A DNA stretch of 64,000 nt from an uncultured Opitutales bacterium. Its GTDB lineage: Bacteria; Verrucomicrobiota; Verrucomicrobiia; Opitutales; UBA2987. The notes beneath the pieces are model-generated. The model did not search any database, had not been told where the DNA came from, and saw only the letters and a program-made list of their open reading frames with translations. The DNA is taken from contig CAZIUG010000008.1 of assembly GCA_964542645.1 (NCBI GenBank), positions 516,338 to 580,337 of the forward strand, read 5' to 3'. Of this stretch, positions 50,654 through 56,817 are shown piece by piece (the first letter of the stretch is position 1; each line of letters starts with the position of its first letter). The position numbers and the translations under genes are program-made.

Positions 50654-52108
50654 ATGACATTACACGTTCGAATAAGCACCCTCGTCTTGTTCGCCGGTGT
50701 TTTACTCTACTGGCTCTTTGCCGACACATTAAGTCGGCACGGGAAGATCAAAGATGAGCAACCATTGGTGGTGGCTCATTGGGGCGGCTATCAAGCCTAT
50801 CAGATGTGGAAGGAGATCTTTGCGGCGTTTCGTCTGAAACATCCGGAGATCGAGTTTGAAAGTCGCCATATGCCATCGACAAGGTACCACCAGAAGATCC
50901 AACAGCAGATTGTCTCCGACACGGCTCCTGATCTTTTCATGATGGAGAATGAATCCTTTCCAAAACTAATTAAATCGGGCAAGATCGAGAACATTTCTCC
51001 CTTTGTGAAAGCAATGGGTCGATGGGGAGAAGACGGGGAGGATTTGAGGAATCAGTACTGGAATACTGCAATCCGTGATTTCGGCGAATTCAATTCGGCT
51101 AATGGGGACTGGGAGCAATGGGGCATGCCGTTGTATGGCGGGTGTAACTTGCTCTTCTACAATAAGGCGAATTGGAGTCGCGCCCAAATTCGGGTCAGCG
51201 AGAACCCCGATTCTCCCGGCCTCATAAAATCGAATTCGGGTTGGTGGTACGTCAATGACGAGAAGTGGAACCTGGACGAATTCATTGCGGTCTGCAAGCG
51301 GCTGACCATAGATCTGGACGGAGATGGTCGAATCGATCAGTACGGACTATTCGTACCTCAGAAGCATTGGCAGACCTTTCACTGGATCATGGGGGCAAGC
51401 TTTTTGGACGAGACCTATACGCGGTCCACGTTCTATGGGCCGGAATGCGAAGCCTCGTTGGGACTCTGGCAAGATTTCCACCTCAAGAGCAAGGTTATGC
51501 CCACCCCTTCTGCTCTGAGCGCACTGAATACAAATACCGGGTTCTTCACCGGCATGATCTCAATCTTGAACACTAACACCTCGGCTCTGATGTTTCTGAA
51601 TGCGACCGAGGTGGACTATGATACGCTGCATCTCCCCAGGGGCAGTAGCGGAAGGCGTTACACTCGTTTTTTCTGGGAAGGCATGGCTATGAGCAGTCTG
51701 TCTCAAAAAAAAGCTGAAGCGTGGATAATGCTCGATTTTCTGACCTCTATCGAGGCGCAGAAGATCATCGCTGACTACCAGATGTCTCTGCCAAGTCTAA
51801 TCGCCTCGGAACCGTACTTTCTGAAGGGCGGAAAAGATCAGGCCCGAGACGTGGATTTGCACAAATTTATCGAAGCAGCTGAGAGCTATGCTAGACGCCA
51901 GCCTATTAGTTTACACTGGGGGCCGATGACTCGAGCGCTTACCAGATGCTGGGAGTCCCTCATCAGTCAAAACGAGGAATTCCGGATGACCCCTCGACAG
52001 GCCATTGCTCGGTATCTTTTCGAAAGTCCCGACCTCTCAGAAAAACTACCGCCGATTGACCCTGCCGCCGCCGAAGAGTATAGACCGGACTGGGAAGCAA
52101 TACGCTAA
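50654..52108 (+). CDS. ABC-type sugar-binding protein (SBP family 1) with N-terminal membrane anchor
   Basis: N-terminal TM, APDLF, LLFYNK, DLDGDGRIDQYG, AWIMLDFLTS. Confidence 0.82.
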   Translation: MTLHVRISTLVLFAGVLLYWLFADTLSRHGKIKDEQPLVVAHWGGYQAYQMWKEIFAAFRLKHPEIEFESRHMPSTRYHQKIQQQIVSDTAPDLFMMENESFPKLIKSGKIENISPFVKAMGRWGEDGEDLRNQYWNTAIRDFGEFNSANGDWEQWGMPLYGGCNLLFYNKANWSRAQIRVSENPDSPGLIKSNSGWWYVNDEKWNLDEFIAVCKRLTIDLDGDGRIDQYGLFVPQKHWQTFHWIMGASFLDETYTRSTFYGPECEASLGLWQDFHLKSKVMPTPSALSALNTNTGFFTGMISILNTNTSALMFLNATEVDYDTLHLPRGSSGRRYTRFFWEGMAMSSLSQKKAEAWIMLDFLTSIEAQKIIADYQMSLPSLIASEPYFLKGGKDQARDVDLHKFIEAAESYARRQPISLHWGPMTRALTRCWESLISQNEEFRMTPRQAIARYLFESPDLSEKLPPIDPAAAEEYRPDWEAIR

Positions 52109-52321
52109 AGAATGGAAGATTTGGGCTTGCCTGAAAATGGTGAACTTGGAGTAATAGACCCCGCTCCACGTATTTCTGAGAAGTTTGCGTTCATTGGTTC
52201 TTTCCAATTTAGGAAGATTCTTCTTCCCTTGTATCATTTGTGCTCTTCTGTATCCTTGAGGGGTAGAAAATCAAGAGTGCTTGAATGATTGATACCCTGA
52301 TTCATTGATAATAAATAAGAT

Positions 52322-52396
52322 TGCTCGGTAGCTCAGCGGTAGAGCAGGTGGCTGTTAACCACTTGGTCGCAGGTTCGAATCCTGCCCGAGCAGCCA
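52322..52396 (+). tRNA. tRNA-Asn (GTT)
   Basis: Acceptor TGCTCGG/CCGAGCA, anticodon arm GGTGG-CTGTTAA-CCACT, GGTTCGAATCC, discriminator G, CCA. Confidence 0.96.
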
Positions 52397-52531
52397 TTTT
52401 GCCATTCCAAATAGCTGTGGAAAACCATGGAAGGCAGGAGTTAACATTTTGGTTAGAATGGCTCTACTTTTTGTTCAAGACCGAGGACTTGACAACTTTT
52501 GTATAGTGAGCGTGTGTGCAGATCGTCCATA

Positions 52532-52888
52532 ATGAAAGCCGTCAGAAGTTTATTGCATTTGCTCTCAGCTGCTACCGTCTTGCTTTTGCTATATGCAGGC
52601 AGCAGTGGTGATCTGCACAGGCTGCTTCATGAGCATGGAGACAAGGCTGGATCGGGATCCCCCTATGAAGGTTCCTGTAATTCTAATTCCGATGATCCAT
52701 TAGATGAAAGTTCCTGCAACAGCAGTTGTGCTGTTCTTCTATTCTCCAGCGGTCTGGTCCTGAACAATCCAATTGAGCCTATACCCGTCGAAAGGCATCT
52801 GCTGGCGATCCATATTGACAGAACGCCGGACAAACTGGTTCAAGGGGTCCAGATACCGACACAAGCCCGGGCACCACCGGTTCTCTGA
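52532..52888 (+). CDS. Putative metal-responsive leader/arrest peptide (DUF2946/CruR-like) ending in RAPP
   Basis: Signal-like N-terminus, HRLLHEH, SCNSSCAV, C-terminal QARAPPVL-stop, 86 nt upstream of a TonB receptor. Confidence 0.78.
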   Translation: MKAVRSLLHLLSAATVLLLLYAGSSGDLHRLLHEHGDKAGSGSPYEGSCNSNSDDPLDESSCNSSCAVLLFSSGLVLNNPIEPIPVERHLLAIHIDRTPDKLVQGVQIPTQARAPPVL

Positions 52889-52971
52889 AAAATGATCCAT
52901 TTCCATTGGCCTGCCAATTCTGAGCAATCAGATGAGCATGCCTTCGCCTTTTTCATCATTTTAAGAGAACC
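52879..52971 (+). promoter_or_regulatory. Predicted RNA structure sequestering the TonB receptor ribosome-binding region
   Basis: GGTTCTCT (52879-86) pairs with AGAGAACC (52964-71); AAAATGAT (52889-96) pairs with ATCATTTT (52955-62); internal hairpins at 52905-18 and 52919-32. Confidence 0.7.
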
Positions 52972-52974
52972 CTC

Positions 52975-55062
52975 ATGCAATTTTTCAGAAAATCCAAATC
53001 GAAATCCGTTAGATCCGCCATTCTTGGCTCAATCGCTTTCTTACCATCCTTTTCGCTGGCTGACACTAGAACCAGCGATCATTCACATTCTAAAATCCAT
53101 GAACTAGACCCATTTGTCGTTAACGCTTCCCTTACTCCACGGAGTAGTCGTGACATGCTAACACCTACCACGGTGGTTGCTTTGGATAAGCTCGAAATCA
53201 GCTTGGCACCCACACTTGGCGAAGCGTTGGACAACCAACCGGGCGTGAACTCTACTGCCTTCGGCGCAGGGGCCAGCCGACCCGTGATCCGCGGACTGGA
53301 GGGTAACCGCCTACGAGTGATGGAAAGCGGAGTGGACATCGGGGACCTCTCTGCTGACAGCCCCGATCATGCTGTTTCCTTGGAACCGTTCTTCATCGAG
53401 CGTATCGAAATCCTGCGCGGTGCGTCGACACTTCAATTTGGCAGTTCTGCGATTGGAGGTGTCGTCAATGTCATCGACACCCGTATCCCCCGCACCCGAC
53501 CTCCGAAGAATTCCTCACTGGAAGCCATAACAGATTACCAATCATCAGCTGATGGGTGGAGTTTTGGTGGTCTGACAACGGTTTCCATACAGGGTATTGC
53601 TGTTTCGGTAAGCTACCTAGACAGGGACCACAACGATTACTCGATTCCCGGGCATCCCGATCATGATGAGGAACAAACGGAAATCCTTGAGAATTCATTT
53701 CTGGAATCCAAAGCCACCTCTGTAGCTCTTTCATGGTTCGCCTCCGGAAGTACGCGGTTCAGCATCGCTCGGACAACCTACGAATCCCAGTATGGTGTTC
53801 CCTGGCACGAGCACGGCACGCACGAGGAGCATGAAAATGAAGAAAACCACGAAGAACATAAAGAAGAGGAATTGCATCACGAAGACGATGAGCATGGCAT
53901 CTCCATCGATCTAAACCAATCGACAGTGGATCTTGATTTTGAGCATACCATCGAAAACTCTTGGCTAAATGCAATTGAAGGAAGATTGCGGCATGTCGAA
54001 TATGATCACCAGGAACTGGAGGGGGACGAAATTGGAACCGACTTTAACCGTGAATCCACAGAGGCCCGTCTTATCGCCACCTATCTTACCGGACCGAATG
54101 ACCAAGGAGCATTTGGCATACAGTGGCTATCACTCGACTCCATGGCTGTCGGTGAAGAATCGCTCACTCCAGACTCGACCACAACAGACACAGCGCTGTT
54201 CCTATTGCAGGAAATGCAGATCAATAATATCCGCGTTGAAGGAGGCATACGAGTGGAACATCGGGAGATCCAAATAACGGATGACGAAGGTTACGATGGC
54301 TGGGCACTCTCAGGATCACTTGGTGCAAAGATTCAATTGACTGAACATTGGTCGATTGGGACTCTTTTCAATCACGCTGAGCGGCATCCCGTGGCGACAG
54401 AATTGTATGCATCTGGCCCGCACGCTGCTACCCAGCAATTTGAGATTGGCGATTCATCCTTCGATTCTGAATCAGCCAATGGTATTGATTTATCGCTTCA
54501 TTGGGATGCAAGCGACTTGAGCGCCAGCCTAACGGCTTTTCATACTGATTTTTCCGATTTCATCTACGCTGCTCCAACAAAGGATGAGCAACATGGATTT
54601 CGCGTGTACCAGTATACACAGGCAGACACAACCTTCTATGGTCTCGAGGCTGCATTGACCTGGCATGCATGGCAGGCTAGCAATGCCTATTTCGACATCA
54701 GTTTTCAAGTAGACACCGTGAATGCCAATATCGAGAAAACCAACGACCTCCTGCCACGGATTCCCCCATTGCGTCTCGGACCCCGGGTACAATTCGGATC
54801 CAAGGACTGGATGATCAATTCGTCTATTCTCCATAGTTTTCCCCAAGATAGGACATCACCATTCGAAGCCTCCTCCGATGCCTACACCAATTGGTCTGCA
54901 TCCTTGCTAATCGATTTACCATTCCAAACAGGTAATTGGCATCTCATTGTCAGTGGACGAAACCTGCTGGATGAAGAAATTCGTCCCCATACGTCTCCTC
55001 TGAAGGAGGTTGCTCCGGCTCCGGGTAGGCACGTGAAACTTACTCTTTCAACCGCCTTTTAA
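52975..55062 (+). CDS. TonB-dependent receptor, ZnuD-like, with His/Glu-rich loop
   Basis: TLGEAL..QPGV, GASRPVIRG, SPDHAV, IEILRG, ELYASGPHAAT, HEHGTHEEHENEENHEEH loop, terminal F. Confidence 0.88.
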   Translation: MQFFRKSKSKSVRSAILGSIAFLPSFSLADTRTSDHSHSKIHELDPFVVNASLTPRSSRDMLTPTTVVALDKLEISLAPTLGEALDNQPGVNSTAFGAGASRPVIRGLEGNRLRVMESGVDIGDLSADSPDHAVSLEPFFIERIEILRGASTLQFGSSAIGGVVNVIDTRIPRTRPPKNSSLEAITDYQSSADGWSFGGLTTVSIQGIAVSVSYLDRDHNDYSIPGHPDHDEEQTEILENSFLESKATSVALSWFASGSTRFSIARTTYESQYGVPWHEHGTHEEHENEENHEEHKEEELHHEDDEHGISIDLNQSTVDLDFEHTIENSWLNAIEGRLRHVEYDHQELEGDEIGTDFNRESTEARLIATYLTGPNDQGAFGIQWLSLDSMAVGEESLTPDSTTTDTALFLLQEMQINNIRVEGGIRVEHREIQITDDEGYDGWALSGSLGAKIQLTEHWSIGTLFNHAERHPVATELYASGPHAATQQFEIGDSSFDSESANGIDLSLHWDASDLSASLTAFHTDFSDFIYAAPTKDEQHGFRVYQYTQADTTFYGLEAALTWHAWQASNAYFDISFQVDTVNANIEKTNDLLPRIPPLRLGPRVQFGSKDWMINSSILHSFPQDRTSPFEASSDAYTNWSASLLIDLPFQTGNWHLIVSGRNLLDEEIRPHTSPLKEVAPAPGRHVKLTLSTAF

Positions 55063-55189: not shown

Positions 55190-56305
55190 CTACAGCATCC
55201 GAACGACCAAATCTCCCACAATATACGCGACAATAGCCACCCCAAGTCCAACAGCAAACATATCAGCTCCACTGCGAATAATACTCCGGCCCGTAAAGAT
55301 GCTACGCGTTGCTCCCACGACAAAATGGGATAACATGGAAACAGCGAAGGAGGTCACGATGGCGGACTTACCTTCGAGAAAGAAGAAGGGAGCGACTGGA
55401 ATAAGCGCACCAACCGCCGTGGCTAGCCCAGTGACCCATCCCTCCTTTATGGGTGTGGTGTGGAGATCTCCAATTCTAAATTCTTCTCGGACCAATTCCT
55501 GAAGCGCCCTCTCAGGGTCCTGCATCACCACACTCGCAAGTTCCCTCGCCCTATCTTCATCCATTCCTTTCGACCGGTATATCAGAGTTAGTTCATCCTC
55601 CTCAAGTTCCGGCATGAGCTTGATCTCCTCCTTCTCCATTTCAATCTCATGGGCATAAACCTCCCGCTCGCTCTTAGCAGCAAGGTAACCGGAGGAACCC
55701 ATAGAGAGCGCATCTGCAATCATTCCAGCGATACCTGTGACTAAGATCAGTCGATAGTCCACTGACGCCCCAACAACTCCTGCTACAAGCCCGAAATTCG
55801 CTGTAAGTCCATCATTGAATCCGTAAACAACATTGCGCAAAAAACCACCTGACTCGATCCGATGCCAGGGCTCCCCTGTTTTATCTGCAATCCCGCTCAA
55901 TGTCAGCGCGTGTTGAGCTGACTCTTTGGCCAGTAATAGCGCCGCCTCCTTTGGATTCTCACTTTCACTCTGATTATAGAGAGCCAGATATCCTTTCACT
56001 TCCTGGCCCTCTTCCTTTAGAAGCATCTCTAAAAGCGAACCCGGCCCGTATCGGGAAGCAAACCAGGCTAATAACCGAGCACGCAAAGAGGGTCTCGTCT
56101 CAGGAACCGCAAAGCCCTCATCAGAAATCAAATTTCTCCAAATACTGGCATGTCGATCTTCAACTTCGGCAAGTTTTTGATAGATACCCGACCTCTTCGA
56201 ATCCAACTCAAGTTCAGCCAGCCTTCGATAAAGGAAGGCAGCATCCGCCTCGTCCTGAAGATGATCCTTCCAGACGGTCAAATCCCGTTTTTCAGCTAAT
56301 GCCAT
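55190..56305 (-). CDS. VIT1/CCC1 family transporter with N-terminal rubrerythrin/ferritin-like domain
   Basis: DEADAAFLY, EDRHA, ESAQHA; VYGFNDGL, ALSMGSSGYL, GALIPVAPF. Confidence 0.88.
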   Translation of the reverse strand: MALAEKRDLTVWKDHLQDEADAAFLYRRLAELELDSKRSGIYQKLAEVEDRHASIWRNLISDEGFAVPETRPSLRARLLAWFASRYGPGSLLEMLLKEEGQEVKGYLALYNQSESENPKEAALLLAKESAQHALTLSGIADKTGEPWHRIESGGFLRNVVYGFNDGLTANFGLVAGVVGASVDYRLILVTGIAGMIADALSMGSSGYLAAKSEREVYAHEIEMEKEEIKLMPELEEDELTLIYRSKGMDEDRARELASVVMQDPERALQELVREEFRIGDLHTTPIKEGWVTGLATAVGALIPVAPFFFLEGKSAIVTSFAVSMLSHFVVGATRSIFTGRSIIRSGADMFAVGLGVAIVAYIVGDLVVRML

Positions 56306-56817
56306 ATCTCGATCAAAGGCCCTCTCTCCCCACAAAAAGGATCCATCGGGGGAAGAGGAACACGAGCAATAATCTCATCCTCTCCCGGCCGCTGTCCCTT
56401 CTGACCATAGCACATATCCATCCGTTGACCCCGCGGATAGGCTCCCACCACTCCGAATCGAAAACTTGATCCCAGATTCTTATGAACTACTCCAGATGGA
56501 ATAACCACCGCATCCCCTACTCCTACCTCCTTTTCAATTCCATTTTCTCCGCCAAACTGAAGGACAGCAGTTCCATTGTATATCCCAAGTACCTCGTGAG
56601 TGTTGGCGTGGTAGTGATGGAAACCGTAGACCCCGTTACGCCAGCTGTGGACCCACCCATTCTCAGCCAATAGTTCTTCGAATGCATCTGCCGTTACTTT
56701 TGACGGCGGAATCACCCTCTGGTAATAGAGCAAGGGCAGTGTCCCGTCGGTTGACATTTTCCCGGTACCACCTAGAGGGAAGCTACTGACATTAAGTTCT
56801 TGGGGTTCTATTCGCAT
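56296..56817 (-). CDS. Cupin domain protein (YjlB-like)
   Basis: LPLLYY, WRNGVYGFHHYHANTHEVLG, IPSGVVH, VGAYP; GAGG RBS before ATG 56817. Confidence 0.85.
   Translation of the reverse strand: MRIEPQELNVSSFPLGGTGKMSTDGTLPLLYYQRVIPPSKVTADAFEELLAENGWVHSWRNGVYGFHHYHANTHEVLGIYNGTAVLQFGGENGIEKEVGVGDAVVIPSGVVHKNLGSSFRFGVVGAYPRGQRMDMCYGQKGQRPGEDEIIARVPLPPMDPFCGERGPLIEIWH

Follow-up and report, generated by a model that had tools for sequence, protein, structure and literature searches.

A long-range RNA helix ties the end of a putative arrest-peptide leader to the start region of a ZnuD-like receptor gene in an Opitutales bacterium and many of its relatives

The window analyzed here is a 64,000-nucleotide (nt) stretch of DNA from an uncultured Opitutales bacterium (assembly GCA_964542645.1, contig CAZIUG010000008.1). 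Within it, a leader open reading frame (ORF) that ends in the putative arrest motif RAPP precedes a gene for a TonB-dependent receptor that resembles ZnuD, and the gap between the two is 86 nt long. Two 8-bp helices form the closing helix of this intergenic RNA and tie the end of the leader to the start region of the receptor gene. Judged by comparison of sequences, the pairing is conserved in related genomes with compensatory change. We consider it probable that a ribosome arrested between the two prolines of the motif (RAP-P) melts the 5' arm of the helix and exposes the receptor start, as in cutF-cutO and secM-secA.

The helices can be read directly from the sequence. In helix 1, GGTTCTCT at positions 52879-86 is the exact reverse complement of AGAGAACC at 52964-71, and in helix 2, AAAATGAT at 52889-96 is the exact reverse complement of ATCATTTT at 52955-62. 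The two are split by a 2x1 internal loop, in which GA (52887-88) of the 5' strand faces A (52963) of the 3' strand. The 3' arm of helix 1 ends at 52971 and is followed by CTC and then by the receptor ATG at 52975. An initial annotation of this DNA had described two perfect 8-bp helices, separated by such a loop and ending 3 nt before the ATG, and the sequence bears this out. Both arm pairs were also recovered by a repeat search of the window. The parts of the structure are as follows.

52879..52886, + strand: 5' arm of helix 1, GGUUCUCU; last base of Pro116, Val, Leu and first base of the stop codon; mean pairing probability 0.97-0.99
52889..52896, + strand: 5' arm of helix 2, AAAAUGAU; mean pairing probability 0.94
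52955..52962, + strand: 3' arm of helix 2, AUCAUUUU; -20 to -13 from the receptor ATG
52964..52971, + strand: 3' arm of helix 1, AGAGAACC; -11 to -4 from the receptor ATG
52919..52932, + strand: inner hairpin UCUGA-GCAA-UCAGA; found in the minimum free energy (MFE) and centroid structures, and the same in a genome of the same genus (G001)

Folding of positions 52860-52990, which the initial annotation had proposed as a check, strongly favors the structure: the energy is -34.7 kcal/mol (z -3.19), none of 200 dinucleotide shuffles folds as well, and both helices are present in the MFE and centroid structures. In a 281-nt context, both helices persist and the stretch as a whole is unexceptional (z -1.39, 19 of 200 shuffles as good). 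Calculated in contexts of 161, 351 and 795 nt, the mean pairing probability of helix 1 is 0.97-0.99 and that of helix 2 is 0.94; positions -20 to -4 before the receptor ATG are paired with a probability of 0.94-0.99. Two hairpins had been proposed inside the closing helix. One, TCTGA-GCAA-TCAGA, appears in the MFE structure. The other, ATTGG-CCTG-CCAAT at 52905-18, is complementary, but the MFE and centroid structures place other local pairing there.

The pairing was also evaluated with a narrower duplex test, in which the leader end (first Pro codon to 12 nt past the stop) was paired by RNAduplex with the segment from -25 to +6 relative to the downstream ATG and compared with shuffles. At this locus the duplex has an energy of -19.3 kcal/mol (z -6.3 to -6.75), a value reached by 0 of 500 and 0 of 300 shuffles. 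The test appears well calibrated, because among 384 ordinary same-strand adjacent ORF pairs from the same genome, p<=0.01 was obtained for 4, p<=0.03 for 12 and p<=0.05 for 18, and z<=-4 for none.

The 5' arm has a rival partner, in that positions 52881-52893 could pair with 52980-52992 (12 of 13 bases; receptor codons 2-6), which would also mask the start region. This pairing is absent from both the MFE and the centroid structure. Rfam covariance models run over 51500-54000 at E<=1 returned tRNA-Asn alone and no family for the helix. No U-run follows the 3' arm, and a terminator scan of 52200-53200 gave no terminator at the helix; the one weak terminator-like site in that scan lies inside the leader ORF and is at chance level. 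One seawater metatranscriptome run (X1) provided a 240-nt contig at 52541-52779, inside the leader ORF, and an unrelated tRNA contig, neither of which covers the helix or the receptor start.

Receptor orthologues occur in related genomes, and several are preceded by ORFs that end in RAPP or RGPP. A leader profile built from an alignment of seven leaders (A1) was used to search 401 genomes sampled from the same order. This hidden Markov model (HMM) has matches in 103 of the 401 genomes. The 106 loci retrieved all contain a leader ORF, and in 105 of them a motif of the form xxPP lies 2-7 residues before the stop. Other searches extended this set little: a search of genome contigs with the single leader had no match, metagenome contigs supplied one locus (L158) that is identical to G001 over the region and adds nothing, and a search of the family of genome G318 for further orthologues of the type found here returned the same 7 genomes again.

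The duplex test could be applied to 102 of the 106 loci, after removal of three without a callable downstream ORF and one without PP. Pairing between the leader end and the start region is significant at p<=0.01 in 18 of these loci, at p<=0.03 in 35 and at p<=0.05 in 43. When the loci are clustered at 70% nucleotide identity, 24 of the 73 resulting clusters have a median p<=0.03 and 12 have a median p<=0.01. The cognate start region outperforms non-cognate ones at p<=0.05 in 31 of 99 loci (5 expected), of which 27 pass both row-wise and column-wise, and the mean duplex energy is -11.98 kcal/mol for cognate versus -7.72 kcal/mol for non-cognate pairings.

The arms are wholly different between lineages yet still complementary. 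At the present locus they read GGUUCUCU-GA-AAAAUGAU and AUCAUUUU-A-AGAGAACC. In G318 they are CUCCGGUUUC-C-UGAUACG and CGUAUCA-A-GAAACUGGAG, in G345 GUUCUCUGACUA.. and ..UAGUCAGAGAAU, and in G171 GGUUCUC..AAUACAG and CUGUAUU..GAGAACC. Even within the clade of the present organism, the non-coding half of the 5' arm is AAAAUGAU, UGAUACG, CUA..UGUAU or AAUACAG, each with a matching partner. Covariation was judged here by shuffles, by cognate versus non-cognate pairings and by clusters, rather than by a column-wise count. RNAalifold reported 0 pairs for 17 relatives with short intergenic regions, for which the MAFFT alignment lacked register, and in an alignment of five regions from the organism's own clade the 3' arms were also misaligned. 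The initial annotation had asked for covariation in orthologues, and the pairing between leader end and start does recur with different sequences, in 35 of 102 loci and 24 of 73 clusters.

The leader ORF that supplies the 5' arm carries the following features, with the positions of the P and A sites at RAPP carried over from the CruR toeprint, as that experiment is described in PMC12992588.

52532..52888, + strand: leader ORF from the ORF list, 118 amino acids plus a TGA stop (52886-88), MKAVRS...TQARAPPVL followed by the stop; leader-family HMM match at 5e-40
52532..52606, + strand: predicted N-terminal export signal or membrane anchor, judged by eye from the translation, with K2 and R5 followed by the 15-residue hydrophobic segment LLHLLSAATVLLLLY
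52616..52630, + strand: codons H29-H33 (HRLLH), which may encode a pair of metal ligands; all 79 aligned leaders have H29, and 62 of the 79 have His at position 33
52715..52729, + strand: C62-N-S-S-C66 (CxxxC); C66 is the invariant Cys of the family (79 of 79)
52868..52879, + strand: R113-A-P-P116, codons CGG GCA CCA CCG, the putative arrest site, with the P site at 52874-76 and the A site at 52877-79

These counts refer to 79 non-identical leaders with an assignable start, which were aligned after 27 of the 106 had been dropped as duplicates or because no Met gave a length of 90-150 residues. H29, C66 and both Pro residues are invariant among them; a second Cys of the CxxxC motif is not, and many members have HxC. 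The spacing from Cys to Arg is 46 residues in the present leader (C66 to R113), and across the 79 it is 45 (7 leaders), 46 (32), 47 (21), 48 (17) or 49 (2). The arrest motif reads RAPP in 38, RGPP in 25, CGPP in 8, RSPP in 3, HAPP in 2, RDPP in 2 and MGPP in 1, and in 78 of the 79 it lies 2-7 residues from the C terminus. Cys takes the place of the motif's Arg in 8 of the 79 (CGPP) and His in 2 (HAPP); the loci concerned are L089, L105, L123, L127, L135, L141, L146, L147, L149, L151, L156 and L157, and L099 and L111, and such leaders often end in LPPxCGPP.

Similarity to known leaders is detectable but weak. The present leader matches Pfam DUF2946 (PF11162) at 13.9 bits (E 0.096; cut-off 23.7 not reached), with profile positions 9-117 of 117 aligned, and 19 of the 79 leaders match at E<=1, the best at 2.5e-5. 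A six-frame search of the genomes of 41 relatives gave no match over the DUF2946 cut-off. A language-model look-up placed DUF2946 clusters among the nearest, which we treat as a lead only. Judged by its sequence, the leader is, at best, a divergent relative of the CruR/CutF-type (DUF2946-like) arrest-peptide leaders. Among the ORFs downstream of the leaders, 92 of 97 match the ZnuD model at E<=1e-10 (5 of the 102 were dropped as short or duplicate). Taken together, the leader features, the DUF2946 matches and the ZnuD-like downstream ORFs indicate that the leader family, found throughout the order and linked to ZnuD-like receptors, is a divergent branch of the CruR/CutF kind.

Two further features of the leader can be recorded. 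A direct repeat, ATGAAGGTTCCTGTAA at 52665-52680 and ATGAAAGTTCCTGCAA at 52704-52719, encodes two copies of E-G/S-S-C-N-S that yield C49 and C62, and looks like an internal duplication of a Cys-bearing segment. In addition, positions 52515-52524 of the leader 5' untranslated region (-17 to -8 from the ATG) are perfectly complementary over 10 bp to 52610-52619 in codons 27-30 (D-L-H29-R). As a candidate for a second switch this pairing was rejected: the extended duplex has an energy of -36.1 kcal/mol here versus -19.3 kcal/mol in G001. Because it is not kept in this genome of the same genus, the pairing may be due to chance.

The placement of the helix relative to the arrest motif follows a consistent geometry. 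Counted from the first base of the second Pro codon, the start of the 5' arm lies at +1 to +3 nt in 31 of the 35 loci that are significant at p<=0.03, and among these 35 between 2 and 6 codons follow PP. The 3' arm stops a median of 3 nt short of the ATG (range -5 to +11), and 23 of the 35 loci have their stop codon within the 5' arm. When the scan for a partner was widened to the entire intergenic region, 28 of 101 loci gave a significant result, and in 20 of these 28 the partner ends between -3 and 7 nt from the ATG.

At the present locus, the second Pro codon is CCG (52877-79). The 5' arm begins at position 52879, the third base of this A-site codon, and helix 1 occupies +5 to +12 relative to the first base of the P site. 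A ribosome with Pro115 in the P site (52874-76) covers the mRNA roughly to 52886-89, and thus the whole 5' arm of helix 1. This agrees with the earlier proposal that the 5' strand starts at the last Pro codon of RAPP and within the footprint of a stalled ribosome. The modeled cost of opening the region from -15 to +5 is 8.2 kcal/mol in free RNA, 5.2-4.3 kcal/mol with a ribosome at RAP-P and 3.8 kcal/mol with a ribosome at the stop. In seven relatives, the cost falls from 8.8-14.1 to 1.2-7.8 kcal/mol, and in six of the seven the drop is 4 to 11 kcal/mol, larger than at the present locus.

What the helix masks appears to be the start region and not a Shine-Dalgarno (SD) sequence. The initial annotation had proposed that an AAGAGA initiation region is sequestered. 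The start-proximal region is indeed masked, but AAGAGA is not an SD core, and no SD sequence is found inside the masked strand here. SD-like words precede 12 of 42 ORFs in the window versus 14 of 42 in a control region. Because they are not enriched, the masked element is the start-proximal region, and the organism seems to make little use of SD pairing. In a few relatives, GGAG or AGGA lies within the 3' arm. At L062 (G318), the Pro-Pro codons CCUCCG pair with GGAG 8-11 nt before the receptor ATG, such that the codons of the arrest site serve as the anti-SD sequence.

The downstream gene encodes a receptor whose closest resemblance is to the zinc-piracy receptor ZnuD of Neisseria (PDB 4rdr), both as a family and as a structure.

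52975..55062, + strand: TonB-dependent receptor, 695 amino acids, ZnuD-like, with a His/Glu-rich insertion; Pfam Plug and barrel domains

Over its full length it matches the NCBIfam ZnuD model (NF038289) at E 1.7e-113. The runner-up family has an E-value of 2.1e-38, which puts ZnuD ahead by 75 orders of magnitude. The best match in the PDB is ZnuD 4rdr at 3.6e-49, and OprC is matched at 7e-6. The receptor can be called ZnuD-like on this evidence, although its score of 380.6 bits is far under the curated cut-off of 950 and does not establish metal specificity. A His/Glu/Asp-rich insertion, HEHGTHEEHENEENHEEHKEEELHHEDDEHG, occupies residues about 275-305 (about 53795-53890), and the mature N terminus carries the motif HSHSKIH. 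These would be metal-binding-like features, in keeping with a ZnuD-type receptor.

Comparison with characterized systems places the locus nearest to CutF and CruR. In the case of CutF, a stem-loop shields the cutO SD sequence and is opened by a stalled ribosome (PMC9973294; preprint 10.1101/2025.02.05.636593). As outlined in these sources, CutF is an exported leader with CxxxC and a C-terminal proline arrest motif, and there also a structure masks the next start and a stalled ribosome is proposed to melt it. The present leader shares these features, although of its CxxxC only C66 is invariant in the family. However, the target of CutF is a multicopper oxidase, and copper induces stalling, whereas the gene here encodes an uptake receptor, for which the opposite polarity is expected. 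In addition, there is no evident SD sequence here, and a long-range helix closes the whole intergenic region, with its 5' arm in the last codons of the leader.

CruR (Bp2923) of Bordetella pertussis is, as summarized in PMC9426467, a DUF2946 leader with a Cys motif, a spacing of 45 +/- 1-2 residues and a C-terminal RAPP, which controls a TonB transporter through copper-relieved arrest and Rho-dependent termination. Toeprinting of CruR, as presented in PMC12992588, showed that arrest occurs when one of the two Pro codons occupies the P site and the other the A site. The present leader resembles it in its signal, its Cys motif, a spacing of about 45 residues (46 here), RAPP near the stop, and a position as the first gene before a TonB transporter, which in Bordetella is bfrG. 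The systems differ in that CruR acts by Rho termination across a 162-nt GC-rich intergenic region, for which PMC9426467 describes no start-masking helix; neither 'Shine' nor 'hairpin' occurs in its text. Moreover, CruR has CXXC, whereas one Cys is invariant here, and the receptor here is ZnuD-like.

The family also fits a class defined in a 2025 EMBO J survey, which reports that, across Gram-negative phyla, TonB receptors may be preceded by RAPP/RGPP ORFs with a signal sequence (PMC12992588). The main text of this survey makes no mention of a stem-loop, secondary structure, Shine-Dalgarno, intergenic, hairpin or zinc; its supplements may list members of the order. A literature search, with supplements outside its scope, found no paper that links ZnuD or zinc with arrest peptides, DUF2946 or CruR.

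The initial annotation had suggested a coupling of the secM/mifM kind. [quoted passage not shown] SecM, MifM and VemP monitor the Sec/YidC machinery encoded downstream, whereas the downstream gene here is a receptor; the force or ligand that ends the arrest must therefore differ. Assignment as a Sec/YidC monitor (SecM, MifM, VemP, ApdA/ApdP) was rejected because the downstream gene encodes a TonB-dependent receptor. Thus, the computations support a masking structure that would be opened by a stall, as the annotation had it, but CutF and CruR are the nearest systems.

The mechanism that we favor would proceed as follows. In free mRNA, positions -20 to -4 before the receptor ATG would be paired, and initiation would thus be disfavored. 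The leader would be a His/Cys peptide that is exported, belongs to the CruR/CutF (DUF2946-like) kind and has the arrest motif RAPP at its end. With Pro115 occupying the P site and Pro116 the A site, the mRNA channel of the ribosome would hold the 5' arm of helix 1 (52879-86), which would release positions -11 to -4 and make the start region cheaper to open. A ribosome that runs on to the stop would open the helix only briefly, and arrest would prolong a state that each passing ribosome makes, such that the length of the arrest would set the amount of receptor. By analogy with CruR, binding of a metal (zinc or copper) by the nascent His/Cys motif would relieve the arrest and shut off the uptake receptor. 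This polarity, in which metal ends the arrest and turns the receptor off, is the natural expectation because the gene encodes an uptake receptor.

We infer that arrest occurs at RAPP in this organism, that it depends on metal with the polarity given above, and that masking limits receptor synthesis; by analogy, control would be exerted by a metal that is probably zinc or copper. The interpretation put forward in the initial annotation is supported as far as computation goes. A wider claim can be advanced only tentatively, and we find it somewhat doubtful: that nascent-chain metal sensors across the order, built from His29/His33 and an invariant Cys 45-49 residues from RAPP or RGPP, gate translation of ZnuD-like receptors by means of a long-range helix that the ribosome unzips.

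Several observations weigh against the mechanism that we favor, or limit its reach. The helix is not universal in the family, because 59 of the 102 related loci, mostly with intergenic regions longer than 105 nt, have no significant pairing between leader end and start at p<=0.05 in the narrow test. Only 9 of 59 loci with an intergenic region longer than 105 nt reach p<=0.03; the share of loci with a significant helix is 12 of 23 for intergenic regions shorter than 70 nt, 14 of 20 for those of 70-105 nt, 6 of 36 for those of 105-130 nt and 3 of 23 for longer ones. In a large group of leaders with an ARGPPHRFR tail, the closing helix stops about 22 nt short of the ATG, and another hairpin comes after it. 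The closest relative contributes little: G001 has 34 of 35 arm bases identical, with U as the last base of the helix 1 3' arm (G-C to G-U), but the two loci are about 90% identical overall. The sharp start of the 5' arm at +2 is partly set by the window chosen for the test, because extension of the 5' segment upstream yields best duplexes that enter the RAPP codons in 16 of the 35 loci. Under the modeled stall, opening the start at the present locus still requires 4-5 kcal/mol, since helix 2 and local pairings persist, and a terminating ribosome opens it at least as well, so that arrest is not strictly needed for coupling. The leader itself falls below the Pfam DUF2946 threshold. Finally, the C-rich, G-poor composition of the intergenic region fits a Rho-utilization (rut) site as in CruR.

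The loci L061, L082, L094, L097 and L116, together with relatives that have ARGPPHRFR or RSPP tails, share an architecture of their own, in which about 20-35 nt lie between the end of the 3' arm and the ATG and a separate GCAGG...CCUGC hairpin follows the closing helix. This architecture differs from that of the present locus, and may work through rearrangement or Rho.

The composition of the intergenic regions bears on the alternative that receptor expression is governed by Rho-dependent termination, as in Bordetella CruR. An arrested ribosome would then shield a C-rich rut site or block Rho from the polymerase, and release of the arrest would end transcription before the receptor; the closing helix would be a pause site, a structural element or a second layer of control, and not the main switch. 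CruR, the only characterized RAPP leader before a TonB receptor, works in this way according to the account in PMC9426467. The present intergenic region contains 26.7% C and 15.1% G, and the means over the 102 family loci are 31% versus 20-22%, with or without a start-masking helix, which two thirds of the family loci lack at a significant level. However, the present intergenic region comprises only 86 nt, most of them enclosed in structure, and the location of the 3' arm at the ATG, with compensatory changes in many lineages, is needed for neither a rut nor a pause function. We therefore regard Rho as an unlikely main switch at this locus. Because the intergenic regions are C-rich and G-poor, a Rho mode may operate alongside the helix, or predominate at loci that lack it.

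The modeled opening energies are relevant to plain translational coupling, in which receptor translation would depend on a ribosome passing the last codons of the leader without regulated arrest. Such coupling would fix a ratio between the two products or block synthesis from untranslated mRNA, and RAPP would merely slow the ribosome constitutively. In its favor, the modeled cost of opening the start is no higher with a terminating ribosome than with a stalled one (3.8 versus 4.3-5.2 kcal/mol), and in 23 of 35 significant loci the stop codon lies within the 5' arm. Nevertheless, the 5' arm keeps its place relative to the Pro-Pro codons, whereas the distance to the stop varies from 2 to 6 codons, and plain coupling has no need of invariant His and Cys residues at a fixed 45-49 residues from the motif in 79 of 79 leaders. 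This fixed spacing points to a sensor. We find coupling without regulated arrest quite improbable, and give very little credence to a non-translational origin of the inverted repeat, as a chance occurrence, a protein-binding site in the DNA, an intrinsic terminator, or an element for RNase III or RNA stability. RNase III might accept a 17-bp interrupted helix as a substrate, and AATGAT/ATCATT presumably resemble halves of metal-regulator boxes. Against chance stand the shuffles (0 of 200, 0 of 500 and 0 of 300) and the 384 control gene pairs, none of which reaches the z-score of the present locus. A DNA site is difficult to reconcile with relatives that keep complementarity and not sequence, a terminator with a 3' arm that has no U-run after it and with a scan that found none, and no Rfam family other than tRNA is matched. 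Release of the start region by an arrested ribosome is thus the reading that we retain.

The surroundings of the two genes are as follows. A tRNA-Asn (GTT) at 52322-52396 lies directly upstream of the leader, and for this reason the leader heads its own unit. Behind the tRNA is an inverted repeat (52401-10 with 52453-62, 9 of 10 bases complementary) with a T-run, possibly the tRNA terminator. If so, only about 55 nt would be left for a promoter of the leader; no sigma-70-like site was found in these ~55 nt, and a scan of 52200-53200 gave no promoter-like site. The next gene past the receptor is convergent (55190-56335, - strand) and encodes a transporter of the VIT1/CCC1 family (Pfam VIT1, E 5e-62). 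The N terminus of this protein has a weak rubrerythrin-like match (E 0.016, under the curated cut-off). By its family assignment, it would be a metal exporter beside a metal importer.

Two arrest leaders of the DUF2946 kind have been studied. Both were recognized recently, and in the sources cited above their read-outs differ, being Rho for CruR and unmasking of an SD sequence for CutF. RAPP/RGPP leaders before TonB receptors are widespread, and the passages on them in PMC12992588 do not say how they act. The new element here is a CruR/CutF-like leader with a long-range, start-masking helix before a ZnuD-like receptor, conserved across an order. For one large clade, this locus and its relatives provide a sequence-level answer, linking a receptor class to an unmasking mechanism. 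Because the receptors are ZnuD-like, they point to a metal other than copper, and the family offers dozens of natural sequence variants. The locus also suggests that masking of a start region can work in an organism that seemingly makes little use of SD pairing. If the proposed mechanism is correct and zinc proves to be the ligand, this would be the first arrest peptide that responds to zinc. A TonB receptor controlled at translation initiation, and not (only) by Rho or by a Zur/Fur repressor, would likewise be a first, and the read-outs of the CruR and CutF types would be interchangeable modules within one leader family.

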